From: Candidatus Micrarchaeota archaeon
Lineage (GTDB): Archaea; Micrarchaeota; Micrarchaeia; Burarchaeales; JAKAKT01
Length of the DNA: 64,000 nt
Direction of reading: 5' to 3'
Assembly: GCA_021813385.1 (NCBI GenBank)
Contig: JAKAKT010000090.1
Coordinates: forward strand, 2,867-66,866
The notes beneath the pieces were generated by a model. It was not told the origin of the DNA and searched no databases. It worked only from the letters and a program-made list of their open reading frames with translations. The position numbers were made by a program, and so were the translations under genes. Shown here piece after piece: positions 1 to 13,645 of this stretch. The stretch's first letter is position 1. Each line of letters begins with the position of its first letter.

Positions 1-7
1 GCGGAGT

Positions 8-877
8 TTAGTTATCTCGTTCCGAAAGATTTACCCAGACTAAATAATGGTCGCTAATCGTTGTATTAATACCGGTTTTGTAAATGCCATAATCTACGAA
101 TTCCGAGGTAGCATTTCCGTTCAGAAGAATCCTATCGTAAGCGCAGTTTGTCGCGTGCACGGTCGTATCCGCGCCTTCTGGGATAACCCAGGTCCAATTC
201 TTGAAGTGGGTCCTATTGTTTTTTGGGTAGTAGCCGCAATCGGCATTCAAATCTCCTAACACAACAGTATTCTCGCTCGCGTTTACTATCGGTTCAAGGG
301 CGGCCAGCTCGGTAGGAACCGAATCCGGAGCCGTGTGAATGTTGTATACCCGTAACTGGTAACCATCCGTCTCAAAATCGACCTCAATAGGGGGCCTCTC
401 CCACCTGTCCTTCGGGTCAGGATTAAAGTCCCTGAAACCTACAAGTTTGATGTTTTTTCGATAGATAATGCCTATCTGCTCCTTGTTTGACGAACGACCC
501 GCGCGGCTCGAATTTATGCAATTGTGGGTTGGAATCCGAGCACATAACGCTGGAAATGCGCTACCGGTTTCATCGCGGATTTCCTGGACGAACGCAATGT
601 CGTAGGCACCCAATACCCGAGCATACGCCTCAAGCAAGGTCGCATTGGATGCCTTGTGTTGTCCGAATGCCTGGAGGTTCCAGCTAGCGAGGGTTATCGA
701 CCGAACAGAGGTAGAGTTTACAGAGACGTTGCGGACAGCTTCGCCCGGCTGTCTGATTTCGCTAACGTTGCGTGCTGGCTGCAAGAATACGTAAAGGACA
801 AGCACGATAACGAGCAGGAAAACAACCAAGAGTATAAGGTTTCTTGCTCGCAAGCGTTCACCATTGTTTTTCATCAA
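8..877 (-). CDS. DNase I-like (EEP superfamily) extracellular nuclease, N-terminal TM anchor
   Basis: Translation aligns by eye to bovine DNase I across the active-site blocks: SWNLQAFG vs NIRTFG, GDLNADCGYY vs GDFNADCSYV, IPEGADTTVHATNCAYDRILL vs IPDSADTTATSTNCAYDRIVV, ISDHYLVWV vs SDHYPVEV. Both catalytic His residues are conserved. A hydrophobic N-terminal helix follows a basic start. Confidence 0.8.
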   Translation of the reverse strand: MMKNNGERLRARNLILLVVFLLVIVLVLYVFLQPARNVSEIRQPGEAVRNVSVNSTSVRSITLASWNLQAFGQHKASNATLLEAYARVLGAYDIAFVQEIRDETGSAFPALCARIPTHNCINSSRAGRSSNKEQIGIIYRKNIKLVGFRDFNPDPKDRWERPPIEVDFETDGYQLRVYNIHTAPDSVPTELAALEPIVNASENTVVLGDLNADCGYYPKNNRTHFKNWTWVIPEGADTTVHATNCAYDRILLNGNATSEFVDYGIYKTGINTTISDHYLVWVNLSERDN

Positions 878-1532
878 TCTTGTTCCCGTTCTTATCGAAC
901 AGCGTTACAGAATCGTGAGTTTTGGCCAGATAAAGTTTGGTTGTTGCTCTCGTAGGATTAAACGTCGTTCCCTTGACGGACCATTCACTATTAGGTGCGA
1001 TGATGGTTCCTGCTGGTATCGTGTAAGTTCCTTCTCCATCTGTCAGTTGCCAGCCTCCGATATCTGCCCTGGAATTGCCAGAGTTACAGAGTTGTATCAG
1101 CTGGTCGTCGGACTTTACCCCGGTTGAAGGATTGTATACGACCTTGCATATCGTAACAGTTGGTGTTTGGGTCTCCGGATTAGTAGTATTCTGTAGGGGC
1201 ACAGGTTTTACTTCAGTTTGATTTGTCGGATTCGTGGTATTCTGCGGGAGCACGGGTTTTTCTTCGGTTTTGTTTGGCCCCAACTCGGTCGTGGTGTTTG
1301 GTTGTGGCACGGTTTTGTTTGCATCTGGAACCGGCGCATCTGGACGGATAGTATTCATAACGTTCGGAATTGATGTATCCGAATCAGTAGTGTTTTGCTG
1401 GGGCGATGGTATTACTTCAGATGGATTAACCCCCGACTCGGTTTTCGCGGTAGAATTGTTCGTGCAGCCGAAAAACAAAACGACGAGCAGCAACGATGCC
1501 AAAAGGAGGACTTTCGGAGCAACCGTTCTCAT
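858..1532 (-). CDS. secreted lipoprotein with Thr/Pro/Asn-rich linker and C-terminal lamin-tail (LTD)-like domain
   Basis: Signal peptide ending in FFGC (lipobox-like). Low-complexity linker with repeated KPVLPQNTTNPTNQTE / KPVPLQNTTNPETQT. The C-terminal block ICKVVYNPSTG...DDQLIQLCNSGNSRADIGGWQLTDGEGTYTIPAGTIIAPNSEW resembles an LTD. Overlaps the downstream DNase I gene by 20 nt, which suggests an operon. Confidence 0.55.
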   Translation of the reverse strand: MRTVAPKVLLLASLLLVVLFFGCTNNSTAKTESGVNPSEVIPSPQQNTTDSDTSIPNVMNTIRPDAPVPDANKTVPQPNTTTELGPNKTEEKPVLPQNTTNPTNQTEVKPVPLQNTTNPETQTPTVTICKVVYNPSTGVKSDDQLIQLCNSGNSRADIGGWQLTDGEGTYTIPAGTIIAPNSEWSVKGTTFNPTRATTKLYLAKTHDSVTLFDKNGNKIDEKQW

Positions 1533-1593
1533 TTAATGACCGTAGTTCTATTATGATACTAAAGTATAAATACTTACGCGTCTACAATAAATA

Positions 1594-1953
1594 TTGAGAG
1601 ACCAAAGTATCCTACGGGATACGGTGGTCTTATTGAATAAGAGCTACGAGTGGATTAGTTTGCTGGTTTCCGAGGGCACGCTGGAGATTTTGAAGTATCT
1701 CGCAGAGCGAGATGTGGGACACTTTAAGGAGCTACGGAGCCTCAAAAACTTTCGCACAAAAAGGAATTTTTCATCCAACACCATCTCGCTTCGAATAAAA
1801 GAACTTGTGGGTTATGGCGCAATAGAACGGACTATCTCTGACAGTAAGGGTCGGAATCTTGTTGCTTACAGGATAACCGATGCTGGGCGTAAATGTATAG
1901 AACTTGCTGACAAATTTGACGACGAACTTTCGGTGGTTTTGAAGAAAAAATAA
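1594..1953 (+). CDS. HxlR-type winged-helix transcriptional regulator
   Basis: 119 aa. The NTISLRIKELVGYGAIER segment matches the HxlR recognition helix/wing pattern (LSxRLKELEEaGli). First gene of a tightly spaced three-gene + strand operon. Confidence 0.55.
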   Translation: MRDQSILRDTVVLLNKSYEWISLLVSEGTLEILKYLAERDVGHFKELRSLKNFRTKRNFSSNTISLRIKELVGYGAIERTISDSKGRNLVAYRITDAGRKCIELADKFDDELSVVLKKK

Positions 1954-1957
1954 TTGC

Positions 1958-2443
1958 TTGAAGGAATTAGACATGACATATAATATATTCATAAGCTACA
2001 GCTCAAAGGACCTCGAAGAAGCGAACAAAATCAAAACACTTATTGACCAAATTCCAGATGCACGGAGTTTTTTGGCGGAAACAAATTTACTTGTGGGCAG
2101 CTTAAGCCAGAATATCATTTCTGCGATACAACGGTGCGACATATTTGTAGTTCTTTATAGCAAGAATTCGCACAATTCAAGTTATGTCCAGCAGGAGATA
2201 GGAGCTGCGCGAATGAGCAACAAGCTAATTCTTCCGATAGTTCTTGACCCAGAAACCAAGCCTGACGCAATGATAAAAGAAATTGGTTATCTCGCTTTCT
2301 ATGACTCAACAAAAAGGCATGAAGAAATGAAAAAACTATACGACCACATTCTAAACGGAGCCAGGCAAAAGGCAAACAATCAAACGGTTCTCGGGCTTGC
2401 GCTGCTTTTGGTTTTGGCTGGCATCGCATCTGAAAAACATTGA
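1958..2443 (+). CDS. TIR-domain protein with C-terminal transmembrane helix
   Basis: N-terminal YNIFISYSSKDLEEANKI is the classic TIR strand-1/helix-A start. SSYVQQEIGAA matches the TIR catalytic-Glu block (S-x-W/Y-C/V-x-x-E-L/I). C-terminal VLGLALLLVLAGIA is hydrophobic. A 4-nt gap separates it from the upstream regulator. Confidence 0.7.
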   Translation: MKELDMTYNIFISYSSKDLEEANKIKTLIDQIPDARSFLAETNLLVGSLSQNIISAIQRCDIFVVLYSKNSHNSSYVQQEIGAARMSNKLILPIVLDPETKPDAMIKEIGYLAFYDSTKRHEEMKKLYDHILNGARQKANNQTVLGLALLLVLAGIASEKH

Positions 2444-2450
2444 AGGTAAG

Positions 2451-3359
2451 ATGATGGGTAAATCTCGTAAAAAGTCAAGAGAGAAACGAGTTAAGATTAG
2501 CCAACTGACGTTCCCAAAACCAGAAAAGAACTTCGTCAATGCATATCGAAATCTCACGTATCAGCATGTTATTTCCGAGCTTAAGAAGATTGAATCCACG
2601 AAAAAGACCAAACCGCCTCAGTTTGAAGAAGAAAAAAAGTATTTGGTGCAGAGTTACTCATCACAAAGTCCAGACGAGATTCAGATTGAAGACGATGACG
2701 GCACGTATTTTCCAAAACCAATTCCCTTACCTTCTGCCTTGTTCGTTCAGTTTGCTGAACCGCACGTATTGATTACTGATTGGAGCGAGGACGTTAAATC
2801 GTGGTATCATTTCCAAGAGCTTATACAGGAATTGGAAAAGCAGGCCTTCGTTTCGTATTTCCAAGGCCTTTATTATGCTTGTTTCATGTGTTCGGTTGGC
2901 TGTCTGGAGTATATTATGAAATATGAATACATACGGAAAACGCATGATGAAAGTATCTTACAAAACCAAACGTTTGGAACGATGCTAAAAAAACTGACGG
3001 ACATCAATCTCGAAAAATACAGGGAGGATTTGGAACTTGTTAATGGGATTCGCAATGGATTTTTCCATCTTAACACTGACAAACTAAAAAATTCGATTGT
3101 CGAATTGAGGACAAAACGCTACAAAAATGTAAAAATTAATACTTTAGATATGGGGACAGACCGATTAACGACTCAAACGATGGATAGAGAATACCACAAA
3201 GATACATTCGACATTCCAGATAATAAGGACATGAGCAAAATCAGTCACCATGTTTACTGCCTACTTAACAAGATTACGAATGAGTTATATGGTCCGAAAC
3301 AGCAGGCCTCATTTATCAAAGAATGCATTAGAGACTATGAAACTCGATACATGGGATAG
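2451..3359 (+). CDS. hypothetical protein with putative HEPN (DUF4145/Apea-like) domain; basic N-terminus
   Basis: 302 aa. TFGTMLKKLTDINLEKYREDLELVNGIRNGFFHLN carries an Rx4H motif (R-N-G-F-F-H) in the context typical of DUF4145-type HEPN (L..iR..gN..aH). Lys/Arg-rich N-terminal tail. Start placed at ATG 2451, 7 nt after the TIR stop, rather than the overlapping 2397. Confidence 0.45.
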   Translation: MMGKSRKKSREKRVKISQLTFPKPEKNFVNAYRNLTYQHVISELKKIESTKKTKPPQFEEEKKYLVQSYSSQSPDEIQIEDDDGTYFPKPIPLPSALFVQFAEPHVLITDWSEDVKSWYHFQELIQELEKQAFVSYFQGLYYACFMCSVGCLEYIMKYEYIRKTHDESILQNQTFGTMLKKLTDINLEKYREDLELVNGIRNGFFHLNTDKLKNSIVELRTKRYKNVKINTLDMGTDRLTTQTMDREYHKDTFDIPDNKDMSKISHHVYCLLNKITNELYGPKQQASFIKECIRDYETRYMG

Positions 3360-3402
3360 GCACACAAATAGGAAATGGAGAGAGCACTATACGGCTTCCC
3401 GC

Positions 3403-4560
3403 TCAATAAAACGCTGTCTCCTCCTCGAAAATTTTTCCATCACTGGTGACGAATTTGAGTTTTAGGTAAGGTGTTTTCGAAGAATCAAGAGGACACCCAG
3501 ATAAGGAAAGCGAACCGAAGTTATATATTATGTCTTCGTGTTCGAAGCTTCCTAATCCCAACGTGGTGCGGGAGTAATCTTGTTTCTTAACGGTGAAAGT
3601 TTTAGTGCAGGAAGTCGTTTGAGTTTCATAAATTCCATAACCGGTCTTTTCTATTATGCTTATCGTTGCTGTTCCATCCGCTGTTGACGTAGAACCTTTT
3701 TCGTTTTGGAGAATAAAATATGCCGCCAATACATTTCCCTGTTTTGATGCGTATAATGTCTTTATTCCGGTTGGCGGGAAGATGTAATTTTTGAGTTGTA
3801 GGCAACTTTCTTTCATTTGACTGTTTGTTATTCGGTTACACGCATCCTCGTCGAATATCAGATTATTATTAACGGAATACGTAACGTAATTGGAGTAGCA
3901 AACATCCTTGTTGGTCACCTGGTCGTAATAACCTTTAGCTTCGTAACTAATCTCCCGCATCGTGCCGCAGATGAAATAGTTATTTCTTATAAACGCAACT
4001 CCGAGATAACAGTTTGACAAGTAATACGGGTCCATGATTTCGTCGCACACATCGGTATTATTTTTCTGAACCGCCATAGAGACGTATTTGCTGGTATAGC
4101 AGGCTCCTACCTCTTTTTCAATTTCGTCTTTACTCATCTTCTCGGAGTTGTAGAGGTTTATACACTTGTCTTTAGTGCAAAAACCCACGTAGCACGTCAT
4201 CCCTGTCCCACATGTTGTTCCGTTCAAGACTTCGTGCTTACACTCTAAACTCGTAGTCTCACAGTAATCGCGAGTGCAGAGGTTTCCGTCGTCACAGCTT
4301 TCCGGGCATTTTTTGCATTTGCTTATATCGGTGACAGTCGTGTTGTCTGGACACGTATATGTAGGGCATTTCGAGAGGTCCATAACCGAAGTGCCGTCAG
4401 GGCAGATATATGTTTTTTGGCATTCACTTAAGTTCTTGACAACGCTACCGTCCGGGCATTCGTAGGTTTTAATAGGTCCAGTAGGGGCTTGTTGTTGAGT
4501 TGAACAACCAAATATGCCAAACGCCAAGACCAGAACGGCGAGTAGGTAAAGTGATTTCAT
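3403..4560 (-). CDS. cysteine-rich secreted lipoprotein
   Basis: Signal peptide with FGIFGCS lipobox. Three tandem ~17-aa repeats Y-x-CPDG-x-V-x-x-LS-x-C. A CPESCDDGNLCTRDYC...CKHE module is shared with the 54499-56700 protein. Confidence 0.65.
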   Translation of the reverse strand: MKSLYLLAVLVLAFGIFGCSTQQQAPTGPIKTYECPDGSVVKNLSECQKTYICPDGTSVMDLSKCPTYTCPDNTTVTDISKCKKCPESCDDGNLCTRDYCETTSLECKHEVLNGTTCGTGMTCYVGFCTKDKCINLYNSEKMSKDEIEKEVGACYTSKYVSMAVQKNNTDVCDEIMDPYYLSNCYLGVAFIRNNYFICGTMREISYEAKGYYDQVTNKDVCYSNYVTYSVNNNLIFDEDACNRITNSQMKESCLQLKNYIFPPTGIKTLYASKQGNVLAAYFILQNEKGSTSTADGTATISIIEKTGYGIYETQTTSCTKTFTVKKQDYSRTTLGLGSFEHEDIIYNFGSLSLSGCPLDSSKTPYLKLKFVTSDGKIFEEETAFY

Positions 4561-5528
4561 GAGCGCACCTTTTTTGTCATTGCCTGGATAAGAACATAGG
4601 GCCGTAAACCATCGTCCACGGTGAAATATCTCAATTTCTCCCTATTCTTAACTCCAACAGCAATGTAATCCTTCCCAAAGTTTAGCGAGATTATTTCTTT
4701 CGGCAAGATTTGAATATTTTTGAAGCTTCCTCTAAACAGGAGCTTGCTGTTAGTTATGGATAAACTTCCGGCATCAAGTTGTTTTACCGAATGGGTCGGT
4801 TCCGATTGACCTTGTGACCCACCCAGAAATACTCCTTTTGAAACTCGGACCCCCGCGTAACCGGTTGAATAACTCCGGCCTACTCTCTCTTCGAGGAGGG
4901 CCGCTGATTCGGAGTAATAGACATTCTCGTCTTTTTCTAAAACGATACCTTGCGTGTTATCGATGGACTGAAAGGTCACGTTAAGGTCTATCTTATCGAT
5001 ACCGTCTTCTTTTTTGGATACCATTTCGTCTAAAATCTCGACGATAGGGTTGTTTTTTCCCTTTCCGAAAACAATGAGTTCGTTGGAATAGAAAACACGC
5101 CAATCGTATAAGGTTTCTTTAAAATTCTGGTTTTTTGTTTTTATTCTGAACTTATCTTGCCCGAATTCGCTTTTACCGATTGGGATATACTCGGTGTTAC
5201 AAACGGAACAACCGATTATCTGTTGACTCGTTAGCCCAAACAAGCCCTTTTTTGTCTGAACTTTTACCTGTCCTTCCTTACAAAAAACACATTTGTTAAA
5301 CAAGATTCCCTCGGGCATTTCTTTATCAGTTTGGAGTTTTACTGGGTTTGCCGAGGTTTCTTCAGGCGCGAGTGGCGTCAGAACCCTCCATTTATAAAGA
5401 AACCCGAAGATTCCCATGATAAACAAAACGAACCCGATGAAGATTGGAGCCGTAAGGAAACCGAATAATAAAAGCCACCAGCGATACTTTATTGCAAAAT
5501 TCTGTAATTTTGCAGACCCCTGATACAA
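4557..5528 (-). CDS. membrane protein with zinc-ribbon and possible PH-like C-terminal domain
   Basis: Two N-terminal TM helices, then CVFC...CSVC (zinc-ribbon spacing). C-terminal beta-rich region (SLSITNSKLLFRGSFKNIQILPKEIISLNF). 4-nt overlap with the upstream Cys-rich lipoprotein gene. Confidence 0.55.
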   Translation of the reverse strand: MYQGSAKLQNFAIKYRWWLLLFGFLTAPIFIGFVLFIMGIFGFLYKWRVLTPLAPEETSANPVKLQTDKEMPEGILFNKCVFCKEGQVKVQTKKGLFGLTSQQIIGCSVCNTEYIPIGKSEFGQDKFRIKTKNQNFKETLYDWRVFYSNELIVFGKGKNNPIVEILDEMVSKKEDGIDKIDLNVTFQSIDNTQGIVLEKDENVYYSESAALLEERVGRSYSTGYAGVRVSKGVFLGGSQGQSEPTHSVKQLDAGSLSITNSKLLFRGSFKNIQILPKEIISLNFGKDYIAVGVKNREKLRYFTVDDGLRPYVLIQAMTKKVRS

Positions 5529-5602
5529 TTGTTCACCCCACGTTAAAGTTAACGAAGTTTAAGGGTTTTAAGCTTTTAGCCTCTTCCGCGTTTGTGAGGT
5601 GT

Positions 5603-6151
5603 TCAGAAGGCGCTCGGTTCCGAGATATTCGACTTCATTAGTTTCTCGCGGATAGGCGACGGTAGGAAAAACAAGGTGGCAGAGCGGCCCAGCGCTTCCT
5701 CCCGTTTCGAAACCCAACCCAAGCCCACGAAGCCGTTCAGGACCCGGATTATTGTCGTATAGGCGGGTATCTGGACTCCGTCTTTCCTGTATCCCGCCAC
5801 TATTTCTTCCGCCTTGCGACGGTCTAAAGTCGCTAAATCGATTGTCTCCTTGTCGGTTTCTATGCTCGTGGAAGAAGGCTTTTTCGGCTTTTTTGCTGGG
5901 ATGAACATTCCCCCTGTTTCTTCTACCGGTATGGAACGAATGTTTGCGACGGTGCGCATACGAAGCTTGCCGTCCTCGTGGTCCCGGATTACGCGGGTGG
6001 CGAGCCTGAAGTAGACCTGCATCGAATTAATGGCGCAACGAGCGCTGTATAGCTCCCAAATAACCTGTTGCTCGATGTGAGCAAGCGCTTCCCATTGAAA
6101 CTCCGAAGGTTGTTTCGAGGTTGGATTCGATTCTGACGCTTTTTTGACCAT
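5603..6151 (-). CDS. hypothetical protein (island-associated)
   Basis: 182-aa ORF in the AT-rich island, divergent from the integrase. No recognisable motif. Confidence 0.4.
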   Translation of the reverse strand: MVKKASESNPTSKQPSEFQWEALAHIEQQVIWELYSARCAINSMQVYFRLATRVIRDHEDGKLRMRTVANIRSIPVEETGGMFIPAKKPKKPSSTSIETDKETIDLATLDRRKAEEIVAGYRKDGVQIPAYTTIIRVLNGFVGLGWVSKREEALGRSATLFFLPSPIREKLMKSNISEPSAF

Positions 6152-6447
6152 ATAAAACCCGTTTACTTTTGTATTGCATAGTATTTCATTAGATAGCCTT
6201 ATAAATGTTTACATTTATATTAGTTAACAGGAGACAACGCAACACAATGAAAGACAAAATATGCGAACGCTCCGGAAGTGATTGAGATGGATGACAAGGC
6301 CAAACTCTTGCCAAAAAGAAGAGAGAACCGGGAATTGTTTGTCGACAAAAGAACCCGCTTAAGCGCGGTAAGGAGATTTTGCGAAATGCATCGGATAAAC
6401 ATTCAGGAAACCGAGGATGTGCTCAAAATTTTCAAGTGAGGGAGAAG

Positions 6448-7674
6448 ATGACCAAGGCAAATATCTACGGAAAGGATTTCGAGAAGGAAGTCGAGAGAAT
6501 GCTGGGCACGTTGAGCGAAGCTAACAGGAAGCCGCTCATCGGATACGTAGAACACAATCGGCAGAGAGGCGTTACATTCCAGCGCTTATACAAGATTGTC
6601 ATTAACATAAGGACATTCATAAATCGCGGTCAGGTCAGGGATATCCGCCGGACCGACGCGGGGGCCGTGAAGGAATTCTTCAACAGCACCGAGTCGCAAG
6701 GCTGCTCGATTGAAACGCTGCGGGACTACAAGATTGTCCTTTCCGGGTTTTATCGCTGGCTTCACGGCATAAAAGGGCAAACGCTGCCCCCGGAAATGGA
6801 GTTCCTTGAAGGCAGGCAATTCAAACACGTCAAGAAAAGCGGACCGGTGCTCACGGAAGAGGACATAAGACGGATGATTGATGTCTCGCTTACGCTCCGG
6901 GACAAGTGCTTTATCACGCTCCTATGGGAATCTGGCGGGCGAATCGGGGAGATACTCGGGATGCAACGAAAAGACGTGCTGGCAGAAAACAAGGACAAAC
7001 GGGAATTCCGCCTTTATTTGGATGGGAAGACCGGCCCGAGGGAGATACTGGTAGTCGATAAGTGGGGATATGCCGACCAATACCTAAACGGGTTCGTTGG
7101 AGATAGCAAAACCTCCCTGTTTTGCACAAGACACCGCGCACACGCGACTTACCCCGCGTTCAGGAAAATGCTGACCGAGACGGCAAAACGGGCGGGAATA
7201 GACAAGAAAATCAATCCGCACTGGTTCCGCCACAGCCGGGCGACCTGTTTCGCGGAGGCCGGGATGTCCCCGATGCATATGGTCCCGTATATGGGCTGGT
7301 CCAACGGCACCAAGATGATTGGGACCTACACCCACCACTCGGCCCGCTCCGCAGATAATACGATTCGCTTGCTCCACTCGGACAACAGCGAGGAATTCAT
7401 GCGGAAGAACTTCGGCGAATTGGACAGTTGCGAAAGCAGGGCGAACCGCGTCGCCGAGGAAGAACTTCTCGACAGGTTCTTCCAAAAATACGGGGGCAGG
7501 ATAATCCAGCGGTTCGTCGAAAGCTATCAGGAGCTTGAAACCTACTCGAACGCGCCTTTAACAAATAAGAAAGATGCTCCGGCCGGGATTTTCAAACCCC
7601 TAGGTTTTCACCGTTTTTTCTTTGGGGTTGATCCAGACCTTTCTTTTTCCCAAAAAGAAAGGGAAGGATTTTGA
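6448..7674 (+). CDS. tyrosine recombinase / phage-type integrase
   Basis: HWFRHSRAT (HxxR box II) and TYTHHS (catalytic Tyr) lie near the C-terminus. Start chosen at MTKANIYG rather than the upstream M at 6379. A long C-terminal tail overlaps a tRNA on the opposite strand. Confidence 0.75.
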   Translation: MTKANIYGKDFEKEVERMLGTLSEANRKPLIGYVEHNRQRGVTFQRLYKIVINIRTFINRGQVRDIRRTDAGAVKEFFNSTESQGCSIETLRDYKIVLSGFYRWLHGIKGQTLPPEMEFLEGRQFKHVKKSGPVLTEEDIRRMIDVSLTLRDKCFITLLWESGGRIGEILGMQRKDVLAENKDKREFRLYLDGKTGPREILVVDKWGYADQYLNGFVGDSKTSLFCTRHRAHATYPAFRKMLTETAKRAGIDKKINPHWFRHSRATCFAEAGMSPMHMVPYMGWSNGTKMIGTYTHHSARSADNTIRLLHSDNSEEFMRKNFGELDSCESRANRVAEEELLDRFFQKYGGRIIQRFVESYQELETYSNAPLTNKKDAPAGIFKPLGFHRFFFGVDPDLSFSQKEREGF

Positions 7675-10206: not shown

Positions 10207-11928
10207 ATGAAGCTTCTTTTCGAGGAACCGGCCTGCACAACCTGTGGCGCGTGCCTTTCCGTATGCCCAAAGAACCCGAAATCCCTAAACCTCTTGAAAT
10301 GCAGGCACTGCCCTCCTGAAAGCGCCGGCTGCAAGCCCGCCTGCCCGAGGGGCGCGATAAAGGAGTCGAACGGGTTCCTGTTTATTGATTCCGAGGAATG
10401 CGACGGGTGCGGGAAGTGCGCGAGGCAATGCTCAAAAGGCGCGATAGAAATCGTTGAGGATAAGGCAATCAAATGCGACGCCTGCCTCGGGAAGCCGAAG
10501 TGCATCGACTACTGCCCAGAGGAAGCGCTCAGGCTCCTCAAGGAAGAAGAGGGGATTCTCGGCTGGAGGGTAAGCGGGGAGAAGGCGGGATATTCCGTGG
10601 GGATACCACGGCTCTCGCGCGAGGAAGAGGGGATAGTTAACGAGATTTGCGCAAGATTCAGGGAAAACTCGAAGAAAGGCGAGTTCGGGGGCCGGGAGGA
10701 TGCGAAGTCCGAGCTTGAGGGAATTCTAACTGGTTATTGCAAGGATTCCGGGCTCATGATGGAAACCGACCAGTTCGATTACCTCTCGAAAATAACGCTG
10801 ATGCAGGTCTGGGGTTTTGGGCCGCTTGACCCAATGCTCGCGGATGACTCGCTCGAGGAAATTGCAGTCGTGGGGTTGGGAAAGCCGGTTTATGTTTATA
10901 AGCGGGGCGAAGGGTGGCTTGAGACGGATTGCTCTTTCACTTCCCAAGAGGTTTTTGTGAATACGGTAAATAAGATGGCGAGGCCCCTTGGAAGGAGGCT
11001 CGCCTACCAAACCCCGAGAATAAATTCCGTCCTGCCTGATGGCTCGAGGCTCCACGCATCGATGCCGCCAATATCGCAGCTCGAACTGACCATTCGTAAG
11101 TTCAGGGCCAATCCAATCTCTGCTCCAGAGCTCGTCTCGCTCGGGACCTTTTCCCCGGAGTCCCTCGCCTTCCTCTGGCTCGCGATGAAAGTGGACACCT
11201 CGATTCTTATCGCAGGGAACACGGCGAGCGGGAAGACGAGCACCCTCAATGCTCTCTTTTCCTTTATCCCGCTCGAAGAGCGCGTGCTCATCACCGAGGA
11301 GACCCCTGAAATAAACATACCGCATAAGCACAGGGTTTCCCTGCTCGCGAACACAGAACTCGGGATAGGGATGGGCGAGCTTGCTTCGGACAGCCTGAGG
11401 ATGAGGCCTGACCGGCTTATTGTTGGCGAGGCAAGGACTGCGGGGGAGGCAAAGGCGCTTCTGGATGCGATAACGAGCGGGCAGGCGAGAGGGAGCTATG
11501 CGACATTCCATGCGCACTCGGCGAAAGAGGCGGTCGCGAGGATGCGCGCTCTCGGCGCGCCTGAAACCGACATCGCGTCAATCGGGCTCATAGTGATACA
11601 GAAAAGGCTTGGGGGAAGCGACAAGGGCAAGGAAGCGAGACGGGCCCTCGAGATTGCAGAAGTGAGAATGAACGGGGGCGCTGTTGAGGCAATCACGATA
11701 TATGGATATGACTACAAGACCCGCTCGCTCAAGAGGACCAAGAATCCTTCCGCAGTGGAGGAAGAGGTCATGAATGCTCTCGGGTTTGACGGGAAAATGC
11801 TCAAGAAAGAGCTTTCAGACAGGTCGAAATTCCTATGTGGGCTCGCCAAGAGGAAAACGGGCTTTTTCGAAACAGTCGTCGCAATACAGAACTATGACAG
11901 GCTGCTGGGGGGATGGTTTGATAGATGA
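10207..11928 (+). CDS. type IV pilus/archaellum-family secretion ATPase (FlaI/TadA/PilB-like) with N-terminal tandem 4Fe-4S ferredoxin domain
   Basis: Walker A GNTASGKTSTLNALF, then ITEETPEI and the GEARTAGEA His-box region typical of GspE/FlaI ATPases. The N-terminal ~110 aa hold four Cys clusters: CTTCGACLSVCP, CRHCPPESAGCKPACP, CDGCGKCARQC, CDACLGKPKCIDYCP. Confidence 0.8.
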   Translation: MKLLFEEPACTTCGACLSVCPKNPKSLNLLKCRHCPPESAGCKPACPRGAIKESNGFLFIDSEECDGCGKCARQCSKGAIEIVEDKAIKCDACLGKPKCIDYCPEEALRLLKEEEGILGWRVSGEKAGYSVGIPRLSREEEGIVNEICARFRENSKKGEFGGREDAKSELEGILTGYCKDSGLMMETDQFDYLSKITLMQVWGFGPLDPMLADDSLEEIAVVGLGKPVYVYKRGEGWLETDCSFTSQEVFVNTVNKMARPLGRRLAYQTPRINSVLPDGSRLHASMPPISQLELTIRKFRANPISAPELVSLGTFSPESLAFLWLAMKVDTSILIAGNTASGKTSTLNALFSFIPLEERVLITEETPEINIPHKHRVSLLANTELGIGMGELASDSLRMRPDRLIVGEARTAGEAKALLDAITSGQARGSYATFHAHSAKEAVARMRALGAPETDIASIGLIVIQKRLGGSDKGKEARRALEIAEVRMNGGAVEAITIYGYDYKTRSLKRTKNPSAVEEEVMNALGFDGKMLKKELSDRSKFLCGLAKRKTGFFETVVAIQNYDRLLGGWFDR

Positions 11929-13645
11929 GCTCGCAGATTCTTTCCCGCAGTTTCGTTTTTTTTCTGAAGCTGGCCTGAAAAAAACATCCGAGAGCCTGAA
12001 GCTCGCGGGGCTTCGAGCTAAACCGGGCGGGTATCTCTCTTTCTCGCTCTCCCTATCGCTCGCAGTCTTTATCCTTTCCCTCCTTTTTCTCCTCTTGTCG
12101 TTCGAGCTCTTGCTCGCCATCGCTTTTTCGCTAATTGTTTTCGCTCTCGCTTATCTTTTCCTCCTCGGGCTCCCCTCGATTCTCGCCAAAAGAAGGGCGC
12201 AGGGGATTGAATCCGACCTCCCAATCGCTCTACGCTCAATCGCCACTGAACTCGCTGTCGGGGTCTCTTTCGAGAAATGCCTCGCACACGCAGCACAATC
12301 CGGCTATTCGATAGCGCCTGAAATGGGGGAAGCGATGGCTGAGATTGAGCATGGCGGCTCGAACGTCCCCGATGCCCTCAGGGGAATCGCGTCAAGAGTG
12401 GATTCCTTGGTCGTGAAGCGCGCTGTCCAGCAGATGATAGAGGCATATGGCCACGGCTCGAAGGGTGAGGGGCTGAGGCATCTCGCCGATGAGTTGATTG
12501 AGGCTCAAAAAGCAGGAACCCGCGAGCACAGCGCGAGAATCGCCTTCCTCGGGCTCCTCTTCGTTGCAGTCTCCTGCATCGTCCCGGCTCTCTTCCAGGC
12601 TTATGCAGTCGTCGGCTCGGCATTCCTCTCCTCTGCTTTCTCTGCTTCGGACATCTGGTTCGCATATGCCATCGGGTTCCCGCTCGCTGGAAGCGCGGTC
12701 CTCTTGGCAATCTACGAGAAAACCCCGAAAAATCTTGGGAGGAGAAAAGGGGGGATTCTCTCAAAAAAACAAGTGGTTCTCGCGGATAAAACTCTTGGGA
12801 GAATGGGGATTGGCGCGGGTTTCGGGAAAGCGCTAGTTTTTCTTATTGGCGCGGCAGTTCCCATTGCCCTCATTCTGCTTTTCGGGAGCTTCGCACTCAG
12901 ATACGAGCCGTGGATTGCGCTTCTTCCCTTTGCAATCCCGGTCCTGGTTTATTTTTTAATGGTAAGGAAAATTGAAGCGAGGACTGCCGAGATTGAGGCG
13001 AGGCTGCCGGATGCCCTGCTCCATGCTTCCTCATTTTCGAAAGGAACCCCGCTTGACAAAATCATTAAATCGATTGCTGATTCGGGATACGGCCCCCTCT
13101 CCATTGAGTTCGCGGCTGCGCACAGCCAGATAAAGTCAGGGGCTGACGTGCCTTCTGCGCTAAGTTCTATCTCGGAAGAGAACGATTCGGTCCTCCTCTC
13201 TCGCGCAACTGAACTCCTCTCGCAGGCCTATTCGGCCGGCGGGGAGATGAGCATGGCGCTCAAGGAGACCGCCGCGGACATGTTCTCGATTTTCTCGATT
13301 GTGAGAGAAAGGGAATCGACCTTAGCGCTGCAGAAATACACGCTCCTTTTTGGGGGGGCGCTCCTCGTCCCCCTCGTTCTGGGGGCGATAACGAACGTGA
13401 TATCGAAACTCGGGGGGCAGGGGATGGAATTGATTTCGAGCATGAGCTCTCTTGAAAGGGCCAGCCTCATTTCTGCTTCAATTGGCGCTGCCCAGATTTA
13501 CCTAGTAATATACTCCTTGCTCGCGAGCCTGTTCATAGCCCAGCTTGGGGGAAGCTGGAGGAATTTCATCGTGTATTTCGTGATGATGGCGCCGGTCTCG
13601 CTATTCGCTTACAATCTGGCGATGAGCGTACATGTGCTTGGGTAG
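11894..13645 (+). CDS. type IV pilus assembly membrane platform protein (FlaJ/TadC/PilC-like, two T2SS-F domains)
   Basis: Polytopic membrane protein with duplicated cytoplasmic helical domains. Immediately downstream of, and overlapping, the secretion ATPase. In-frame ATG at 11894; the upstream extension to 11774 is rejected. Confidence 0.7.
   Translation: MTGCWGDGLIDELADSFPQFRFFSEAGLKKTSESLKLAGLRAKPGGYLSFSLSLSLAVFILSLLFLLLSFELLLAIAFSLIVFALAYLFLLGLPSILAKRRAQGIESDLPIALRSIATELAVGVSFEKCLAHAAQSGYSIAPEMGEAMAEIEHGGSNVPDALRGIASRVDSLVVKRAVQQMIEAYGHGSKGEGLRHLADELIEAQKAGTREHSARIAFLGLLFVAVSCIVPALFQAYAVVGSAFLSSAFSASDIWFAYAIGFPLAGSAVLLAIYEKTPKNLGRRKGGILSKKQVVLADKTLGRMGIGAGFGKALVFLIGAAVPIALILLFGSFALRYEPWIALLPFAIPVLVYFLMVRKIEARTAEIEARLPDALLHASSFSKGTPLDKIIKSIADSGYGPLSIEFAAAHSQIKSGADVPSALSSISEENDSVLLSRATELLSQAYSAGGEMSMALKETAADMFSIFSIVRERESTLALQKYTLLFGGALLVPLVLGAITNVISKLGGQGMELISSMSSLERASLISASIGAAQIYLVIYSLLASLFIAQLGGSWRNFIVYFVMMAPVSLFAYNLAMSVHVLG

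Follow-up and report, generated by a model that had tools for sequence, protein, structure and literature searches.

A microbial DNase I family was surveyed in 2015 together with the enzyme DNaseTA of Thioalkalivibrio, and the lamin tail domain (LTD) was reported among the accessory domains of its members (PMC4486849). C-terminal LTD fusions were described for the archaeon Methanohalobium evestigatum (D7E828) and for Nitrosococcus halophilus (D8KCF8), and the LTD was proposed to act as a DNA-binding helper of microbial DNase I (PMC4486849). In the nuclease ExeM, deletion of the LTD lowers the activity in vitro but not the clearing of DNA in vivo (PMC6085458). MnuA of Mycoplasma is reported to be a membrane-anchored nuclease serving nucleotide salvage (PMC11729948). 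DNase I-LTD fusions of prokaryotes, including an archaeal one, have been known since 2015. Here we analyzed a stretch of 64,000 nucleotides from a Candidatus Micrarchaeota archaeon (contig JAKAKT010000090.1, assembly GCA_021813385.1), hereafter called the window, focusing on two adjacent genes that encode a nuclease of the DNase I family and a putative LTD lipoprotein.

In the list of open reading frames (ORFs), two frames, both on the minus strand, together fill positions 8-1532 of the window. Their coordinates and sequence-level features had been described accurately in an earlier interpretation made from the letters of the DNA, which we call the sequence-only reading. The nuclease gene occupies positions 8-874(-) and encodes 288 amino acids from the ATG at 874; the frame extends at most to 8-877(-), which gives 289 amino acids if the TTG at 877 is the start, and the NCBI annotation chose the TTG at 853 (281 amino acids). 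The 288-residue product is 100% identical to a database protein (P0001). The LTD lipoprotein gene lies at 858-1532(-), encodes 224 amino acids and ends with a stop codon at 858-860. How the two genes are spaced is determined by the start codon of the nuclease: they overlap by 17 nucleotides with ATG-874 (858-874, minus strand) or by 20 nucleotides with TTG-877, and are separated by 4 nucleotides with TTG-853. Whichever start codon applies, the genes abut on one strand.

The nuclease and its family

The ORF at 8-874/877(-) almost certainly encodes a DNase I-family nuclease. The Pfam search returned only the generic endonuclease/exonuclease/phosphatase (EEP) family Exo_endo_phos (PF03372, E-value 1.5e-13, profile positions 1-225 of 225), and no family-level match was obtained in NCBIfam. 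Membership in the MnuA family (NF045851) was rejected, the NCBIfam score being 19.4 bits against a cut-off of 185. When the single nuclease sequence was compared with the PDB sequences using phmmer, human DNase I (3e-24), bovine DNase I (4e-23) and DNase1L3 (8e-22) were retrieved, and no other EEP enzymes were found at E ≤ 0.01. The matching chains represent five distinct sequences, every one of which is DNase I or DNase1L3. A profile made of 30 family sequences recovered the same five sequences only, with E-values from 6e-38 to 2e-36 over residues 2-257 of 260.

In order to compare individual residues, an alignment of 30 relatives with bovine and human DNase I was used, in which the bovine sequence was checked against the fragments from the profile search; the roles of catalytic and metal-binding residues, in bovine numbering, were drawn from the DNase I literature. 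The identity to the bovine and human enzymes is 33-34% over 223 aligned columns. The bovine residues N7, E39, E78, H134, D168, N170, D212, D251 and H252 correspond to N66, E98, E132, H180, D208, N210, D247, D275 and H276 of the nuclease, each of the nine being conserved in 29-30 of the 30 relatives. For the essential disulfide C173-C209, the equivalent cysteines are C213 and C244, which do not vary across the 30 aligned sequences. Among the DNA-contact residues, R41, R111, Y175 and Y211 are retained, and so, largely, is Ca2+ site I (D201, T203, T205, T207), which can be observed as D236, T238 and T242, with H240 replacing T205. In addition, the nuclease carries a family-specific invariant cysteine pair, Cys111/Cys119. 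The sequence blocks quoted in the sequence-only reading were found as LNADCGYY, ADTTVHATNCAYDRI and SDHYL (SDHYP in mammals), together with both catalytic histidine contexts, NIH180TAP and SDH276Y. Judged by residue conservation, the nuclease appears to be catalytically intact.

The predicted structure agrees with this assignment. The AlphaFold2 (AF2) model of the nuclease has a mean predicted local distance difference test (pLDDT) value of 88.8 and a predicted template modelling score of 0.80, and shows the four-layer alpha/beta sandwich of the EEP fold. In a Foldseek search of the PDB, 227 matches were obtained at E ≤ 1e-3, and all of the top 50 listed are EEP enzymes. The ten best are all DNase I or DNase1L3, with E-values from 4.5e-23 to 9e-20, template modelling (TM) scores of 0.76-0.80 and root mean square deviations of 2.3-2.9 Å. 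The runners-up, TDP2 and EEPD1, reach approximately 1e-14 with TM scores of about 0.6, so that about five orders of magnitude separate DNase I from the next family (8.9e-20 versus 1.5e-14 for TDP2). Based on the alignment, the model and Foldseek, the DNase I catalytic domain was placed at residues 59-284 (23-700, minus strand). By sequence and by model, the enzyme is closer to DNase I than to APE1/ExoIII, TDP2, CdtB, sphingomyelinase or the inositol phosphatases. A generic EEP phosphatase or a sphingomyelinase was rejected on the basis of the catalytic and DNA-contact residues and of the matches to DNase I only. The claim of the sequence-only reading that this is no generic EEP match but an enzyme of the DNase I type agrees with the PDB searches, the residues and the structure. 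The same reading had also named two outcomes that would speak against the claim, a placement in another EEP subfamily and a loss of catalytic residues; both were checked, and neither was found.

The same reading had described the enzyme as membrane-anchored, and this is supported by the sequence and the model. Residues 12-31 (782-841, minus strand; LILLVVFLLVIVLVLYVFL), recognized by eye as a putative signal-anchor or transmembrane segment, are uniformly hydrophobic and follow a start rich in lysine and arginine (K2, R7, R9 and R11). In the AF2 model, a helix is predicted for residues 5-31 and a disordered linker for residues 36-54. Because neither a lipobox nor an obvious cleavage site can be read in the nuclease sequence after the hydrophobic segment, a type II signal-anchor would be the simplest topology. 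Among the fetched relatives that start with methionine, 233 of 259 (90%) possess an N-terminal hydrophobic segment, so that the family as a whole appears to be exported; a lipobox-like cysteine is present in 61 of those 233. The nuclease ectodomain contains 11 N-X-S/T sequons, and a homologue of AglB/STT3 is encoded within the window.

A word-index search with the nuclease gave 433 matches, and the cluster representatives of the family number 1,624 at E ≤ 1e-3 and 185 at E ≤ 1e-30. In the scan of genome contigs, a single-protein query gave no relatives, and an alignment query yielded at least 175 confirmed loci in a one-genome-per-species collection, overwhelmingly from DPANN archaea. These numbers contradict the expectation of the sequence-only reading that such an enzyme would be uncommon in archaea. 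All locus-level comparisons given below refer to the 80 best of the 175 loci. By label, these comprise 27 Woesearchaeota, 9 Micrarchaeota, 9 Nanoarchaeota and 6 Pacearchaeota; the remaining ones belong to Altiarchaeota, Iainarchaeota and unclassified archaea, to a few metagenome-assembled genomes (MAGs) of Methanosarcinales, Methanoperedens and ANME-1, and to six bacterial MAGs. The copies from the Methanoperedens, ANME-1 (Methanophagales) and Methanosarcinales MAGs (L077, L080, L081, L082, L084) form a deep clade with some Micrarchaeota copies, and those from the bacterial MAGs (Patescibacteria, Bdellovibrionales and others; L016, L032, L046, L052, L054, L067) are nested among DPANN sequences. 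The Methanosarcinales-type and bacterial occurrences reflect either host-symbiont or inter-domain transfer, or binning contamination. Some members of the family had already been named 'deoxyribonuclease-1-like protein' by the Joint Genome Institute (JGI). In the literature available for this analysis, no paper on this DNase I family in DPANN, Woesearchaeota or Micrarchaeota was found.

The nearest relatives of the nuclease, with 67% and 57% identity, are both from Micrarchaeota, and hundreds of archaeal relatives are 45-68% identical to it. In a crude neighbour-joining tree without support values, the nuclease groups with these two Micrarchaeota sequences. Because this trio is nested among sequences of Woesearchaeota and Nanoarchaeota, and other Micrarchaeota copies are located elsewhere in the tree, the topology hints at transfer among DPANN lineages and not from eukaryotes. 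Homologues encoded on Vibrio megaplasmids are 33% identical, on a par with the mammalian enzymes. The Vibrio genes were found on NZ_CP009620.1 and 9 other plasmids of Vibrio coralliilyticus and other Vibrio, where they are annotated as 'endonuclease/exonuclease/phosphatase family protein'. A scan of the IMG/VR viral contigs revealed no relatives of the family.

The sequence-only reading had regarded the enzyme as eukaryotic-type and possibly acquired horizontally. That the archaeon recently obtained its DNase I gene from a eukaryote is extremely improbable, and we rejected it. The matches in the PDB are indeed all to mammalian members of the DNase I family, but the PDB holds no prokaryotic members. 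The mammalian enzymes are as distant as the Vibrio plasmid homologues, the much closer archaeal relatives include nearest ones from the same phylum, and the family differs by an invariant Cys111/Cys119 pair of its own and by the lack of the C101-C104 loop. The part of that suggestion which stands is the lateral one, since local or intra-DPANN acquisition is plausible.

The putative lamin tail domain lipoprotein and its association with nucleases

The protein encoded upstream of the nuclease begins with a putative signal peptide (residues 1-23; 1464-1532, minus strand), identified by eye, with a lipobox-like FFG-C23. The motif MRTVAPKVLLLASLLLVVLFFG-C23 is a loose fit to a lipobox, the processing of lipoproteins in archaea being poorly characterized; in related LTD proteins the motif is VSGC. 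A stalk rich in threonine, proline and asparagine follows, delimited by composition at residues 24-120 (1173-1463, minus strand). Over residues 24-125, the content of these amino acids is 20.6% Thr, 16.7% Pro and 13.7% Asn, and nine N-X-S/T sequons are present; the stalk of approximately 100 residues is probably glycosylated.

The C-terminal part, residues 121-224 (861-1172, minus strand), is a true lamin tail domain by both sequence and predicted structure. It matches Pfam LTD (PF00932) over residues 121-223 with 55.5 bits against a cut-off of 34.3 (E-value 8.9e-15). An AF2 model of moderate quality (pLDDT 76.9), based on a 5-sequence alignment, shows a beta-sandwich of seven strands, and the top 15 Foldseek matches of this model in the PDB are all tail immunoglobulin folds of lamins A/C, B1 and B2 (E-values from 2.7e-5 to 2e-3, TM scores of 0.55-0.63). 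The description of the neighbouring protein as an LTD lipoprotein with a Thr/Pro/Asn stalk is supported by the Pfam and lamin-fold matches, with Cys23 as a candidate lipobox cysteine.

Relatives of this particular LTD were more difficult to detect. A word-index query with the whole LTD protein retrieved nothing beyond the query, and a metagenome scan with a 2-sequence LTD alignment gave no matches. A degenerate DNA pattern for the motif DGEG[ST]YTIP, applied to the JGI metagenomes, retrieved 19 loci, with nine strong matches to the subtype and one weak match. The LTDs of the subtype from JGI metagenomes are 41-59% identical to the window LTD, and those fused to DNase I, staphylococcal-type nuclease (SNase) or Kelch domains are 51-59% identical. 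The same subtype is found at the C-terminus of a secreted SNase fusion (L096 2508-3338(-), also in L106) and of an 835-residue Kelch-propeller protein (L094 1139-3643(-)). It also ends a stalk-lipoprotein (L109 2316-3737(-)) that is followed, after about 260 nucleotides, by a short ORF on the same strand encoding an SNase homologue; this arrangement can be observed on five contigs (L097, L099, L102, L103, L109), which are near-identical and probably represent one population. On the basis of these sequences, the subtype behaves as a portable C-terminal module.

Within the nuclease family itself, four DNase I+LTD fusions were found (P0025, P0246, P0191 and P0201), and the LTD of P0025 is 51% identical to that of the window. 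The statement that LTDs accompany nucleases is thus well founded, given these four fusions and the SNase fusion of the same subtype. In the sub-branch of P0191 and P0201, both cysteines of the C173/C209 pair, invariant elsewhere, have been lost together (NADGSYY, TYDRI); the LTD of these two proteins is of a more generic type, and P0191 also contains PKD/Big domains. The exact LTD protein of the window (P0269) is present on eight contigs of NCBI, ENA and Logan assemblies, and the arrangement of the pair is identical on these eight contigs, which come from independent assemblies of one population. Because fusions of LTDs to nucleases recur, and because published work describes the same link, the sequence comparisons indicate that the window contains a split, trans version of a known LTD-nuclease association. 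Whether the two proteins are directly linked in function we consider evenly balanced.

Proposed role and rival explanations

We propose that the two proteins form a cell-surface DNA-degrading pair for nucleotide and phosphate salvage, in which the LTD protein assists the nuclease, and we assign this reading a probability of roughly 0.6. The nuclease would be tethered to the outside of the membrane through its N-terminal signal-anchor and a flexible linker of about 25 residues. To judge from its residues, it would cut double-stranded DNA by the DNase I mechanism, with His180/Glu132 and His276/Asp247 as putative acid/base pairs and with Asn66, Glu98, Asp208 and Asp275 as predicted ligands of a divalent metal. 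The LTD protein would be lipid-anchored next to it and, by analogy with the DNase I-LTD, SNase-LTD and ExeM-type fusions, could act in trans as the domain does there in cis, binding or positioning DNA or the envelope and thereby raising the efficiency of the nuclease. Environmental or host-derived DNA would be converted to oligonucleotides, which would enter nucleotide and phosphate salvage.

The genomes of DPANN archaea are small, and for many of them a dependence on building blocks from hosts or the environment is assumed. Extracellular DNA has been proposed as a DPANN substrate (PMC7414124). A salvage role would fit because the family is concentrated in DPANN, because the literature proposes DNA as a substrate of these archaea, and because phosphorylase and isomerase genes occur nearby: in the closest (67%) relative, two genes of the nucleoside-degradation type (L002-L004, 331-3421) are located 5-7 kb from the nuclease gene. 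They encode an IF-2B-family protein (R15P-isomerase-like) and a 521-residue Glycos_transf_3 protein (AMP/thymidine phosphorylase-like), both of which belong to the archaeal nucleoside degradation route.

It is necessary to set against this proposal several observations that weigh on the other side. The LTD is dispensable for the function of ExeM in vivo (PMC6085458), and the LTD of the window, with a near-neutral isoelectric point of 6.7, is not an obvious candidate for DNA binding. In the nuclease, the DNA-contact residue R9 is replaced by Q and Y76 by N (S in most relatives). The Ca2+ site II, which in the mammalian enzymes involves D99, D107, F109 and E112 with the C101-C104 loop, is deleted together with that loop, and E112 is replaced by P161. 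Two structural Ca2+ sites typify the mammalian enzymes and are not needed for catalysis; the changed contact residues and the lost site II mean that metal dependence and substrate preference may differ. The genome fragment encodes NrdD, GlyA, FolC and ArgH, so the host is not among the most reduced DPANN. Finally, no LTD ORF was detected within 5 kb of the nuclease at the 80 other genome loci using hidden Markov models of 2 and 4 sequences, and clustering of the flanking ORFs revealed no conserved neighbour among the 80 loci, the best cluster being housekeeping-like and covering 10 of 80 loci only. Since no LTD gene lies near the nuclease in those genomes, the pairing is lineage-specific and could be incidental.

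These last observations lead to the explanation that the LTD protein and the nuclease are functionally unrelated and that their adjacency is an accident of a mosaic accessory region. The order of the two genes, with the LTD first, reverses the domain order of the fusions, and the GC content of the pair (0.47-0.49, against 0.38-0.43 for the flanking genes) suggests a mosaic history. On the other hand, fusions of this LTD subtype exist with both DNase I (P0025, 51%) and SNase (L096), the subtype precedes an SNase ORF on five contigs, the two genes abut or overlap and are similar in GC content, and their arrangement is the same on the eight contigs, albeit from one population; we therefore consider a mere accident rather unlikely. 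Somewhat less likely still is a role in remodelling of the matrix or of the host interface, in which the nuclease would trim the extracellular DNA of biofilms or of DPANN-host contacts and so control attachment and detachment, with nutrition being secondary. ExeM, which combines LTD, OB and EEP domains, affects biofilm formation (PMC6085458), and ExeM and Xds are precedents in Shewanella and Vibrio; moreover, a long, probably glycosylated stalk with an immunoglobulin-like LTD recalls the architecture of surface adhesins, and the same LTD subtype is carried by a Kelch propeller, a non-nuclease surface module. However, such remodelling is compatible with salvage rather than exclusive of it, and the family is near-ubiquitous in DPANN MAGs from planktonic groundwater and lake samples.

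Defence against incoming DNA was also put forward by the sequence-only reading. We regard as improbable such a barrier defence, in which the surface nuclease and the LTD protein would belong to a defence island and destroy incoming viral, plasmid or transforming DNA. The low-GC block, the divergently oriented genes for a winged helix-turn-helix protein and a TIR protein (ThsB-like, 1.4e-8), the integrase 5 kb away and an IS200-like fragment would be in keeping with such an island. Specific support for it is nevertheless missing: in PADLOC-DB 2.0, the nuclease, the LTD protein and the 770- and 130-residue proteins encoded downstream (described below) matched no model, and only the TIR neighbour matched, as ThsB-like. 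In the 80 genomes, the nuclease gene is found in housekeeping neighbourhoods, among genes for TBP, L21e, Rpb4, the thermosome and aminoacyl-tRNA synthetases, with no recurrent defence neighbour; the loci of the nearest relatives lie beside TBP, L21e and Rpb4 or near a thermosome gene. Relatives are likewise missing from the IMG/VR contigs, and DNA injected by a virus would be out of reach of a non-specific extracellular nuclease. A salvage pair on the cell surface remains the reading that we prefer.

Genomic setting and relation to known systems

The LTD and nuclease genes are likely co-transcribed, probably from a single promoter upstream of the LTD gene. A TTTATA box at 1565-1570(-), located about 36 nucleotides upstream of the LTD ATG and noticed by eye, resembles an archaeal TATA box and is a candidate promoter element for this transcript. 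The longer contigs L086-L090 show two further genes behind the nuclease gene and on its strand, which encode a 770-residue polytopic membrane protein and a 130-residue protein (L086 11589-14290). The first terminator-like hairpin on the nuclease strand, a strong one, occurs only after this fourth gene (L086 14363-14390), so the transcript may extend to the two following genes, four genes in all. The 770-residue protein can be divided into an N-terminal signal, a large part outside the cytoplasm, several transmembrane segments and a soluble C-terminal domain. Searches of Pfam, PDB, PADLOC and PHROGs gave no match for it or for the 130-residue protein, and homologues of the two were not found beside other members of the nuclease family.

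The GC content of the genome fragment is 0.52, that of most genes from about position 5528 leftwards is 0.38-0.43, and that of the LTD and nuclease genes is 0.47 and 0.49, respectively. A tyrosine integrase is encoded at 6379-7674, 5 kb from the pair, and beyond the four genes lies an IS200-like transposase fragment, at which five independent assemblies end. A search for att-like direct repeats in the block from the integrase to the contig end gave only short repeats at chance level. The low-GC accessory block was observed within window positions 1-7674 and, beyond the window start, L086 11589-14689, with the integrase bounding it on one side. These features place the pair in a mosaic accessory region, which makes local lateral acquisition plausible. 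A bolder interpretation is that the four same-strand genes form a mobile module for DNA capture, fragmentation and import of a DPANN episymbiont, possibly feeding on host DNA, with the LTD protein as a DNA- or host-envelope-binding arm, the 770-residue protein as conduit, and the integrase- and IS200-flanked low-GC island spreading among DPANN; we consider this quite doubtful.

Several other genes of the window can be mentioned. Three genes at 1594-3359(+) diverge from the LTD gene and encode a winged-helix regulator (1594-1953(+)), a TIR-domain protein resembling ThsB of Thoeris (1958-2443(+); Pfam TIR_2, 9.6e-16; PADLOC ThsB, 1.4e-8) and an overlapping 320-residue protein with no family match; no ThsA-like partner of the TIR gene was seen. 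At 3403-5528(-), an overlapping gene pair, neither member of which has a family match, encodes a 385-residue cysteine-rich lipobox protein with repeated 'CPDG(S/T)' motifs (3403-4560(-)) and a 323-residue membrane protein (4557-5528(-)). A type II/IV secretion-family ATPase with an unusual N-terminal pair of 4Fe-4S ferredoxin domains is encoded at 10207-11928(+), and its gene overlaps that of an ArlJ/FlaJ-like membrane protein (11774-13645(+)); to judge from their domains, these two represent a pilus- or archaellum-type machine, possibly with a redox-sensing ATPase. Archaeal markers in the window include AglB, the ArlJ-like protein, a glycogen debranching enzyme of the archaeal type and an archaeal MAT. 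The named proteins closest to this MAT (86%, 83% and 65% identity) all come from Candidatus Micrarchaeota archaeon, which makes the host a DPANN archaeon.

Taken together, the feature is real and less unusual than the sequence-only reading had held, given that DPANN commonly carry the nuclease. Specific to this locus are the separate lipoprotein gene for the LTD, which directly adjoins that of the nuclease, the occurrence of the same LTD subtype in fusions with DNase I and SNase elsewhere, and the position of the pair in a low-GC block near an integrase. A membrane-tethered DNase I in well over a hundred DPANN species provides a testable candidate route to nucleotides and phosphate from extracellular or host DNA. 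Rather than having been invented by eukaryotes, DNase I is an ancient family with members in all three domains. Because its LTD lipoprotein stands alone, the locus offers a simple two-protein system for asking what prokaryotic LTDs do for nucleases, a question left by the studies on ExeM and DNaseTA. Current views are not overturned by these results; the annotation is refined.

Compared with mammalian DNase I and DNase1L3 (PDB 4AWN, 1DNK and 7KIU), the archaeal enzyme shares the EEP subfamily, a full-length alignment, the catalytic and metal-binding residues and the disulfide, and it has most of Ca2+ site I and four DNA-contact residues in common with mammalian DNase I. It differs by the absence of the C101-C104/site II loop, by Q at R9 and N at Y76, and by the extra Cys111/Cys119 pair; it is anchored by an N-terminal helix that looks uncleaved, whereas the mammalian enzyme is secreted. 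With MnuA (NF045851), a salvage nuclease of a genome-reduced, host-dependent organism, it shares the EEP fold and the membrane anchor, but the match is marginal and of partial length only, and the EEP subfamily is different.

ExeM of Shewanella and Xds of Vibrio, which are Ca2+/Mg2+-dependent, share with the pair an envelope-associated combination of LTD and EEP domains. ExeM is, however, a single polypeptide of 871 amino acids with an essential OB-fold (YhcR-like) region, and its EEP domain belongs to a subtype other than DNase I. Neither of the two window proteins has an OB or YhcR domain according to Pfam and NCBIfam, and the LTD-OB-EEP architecture of ExeM and Xds is not present here, the LTD and the nuclease being encoded by separate genes. 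The closest described system is the microbial DNase I family (InterPro IPR016202), with which the pair shares a secreted prokaryotic DNase I-type domain linked to an LTD. The host is a member of DPANN and not a halophile like Methanohalobium, whose protein D7E828 was compared by its published description. In the IPR016202 fusions the LTD is attached C-terminally to the nuclease, whereas here it forms a putative lipoprotein of its own, separately anchored and with a stalk of about 100 residues, whose gene lies upstream of the nuclease gene.

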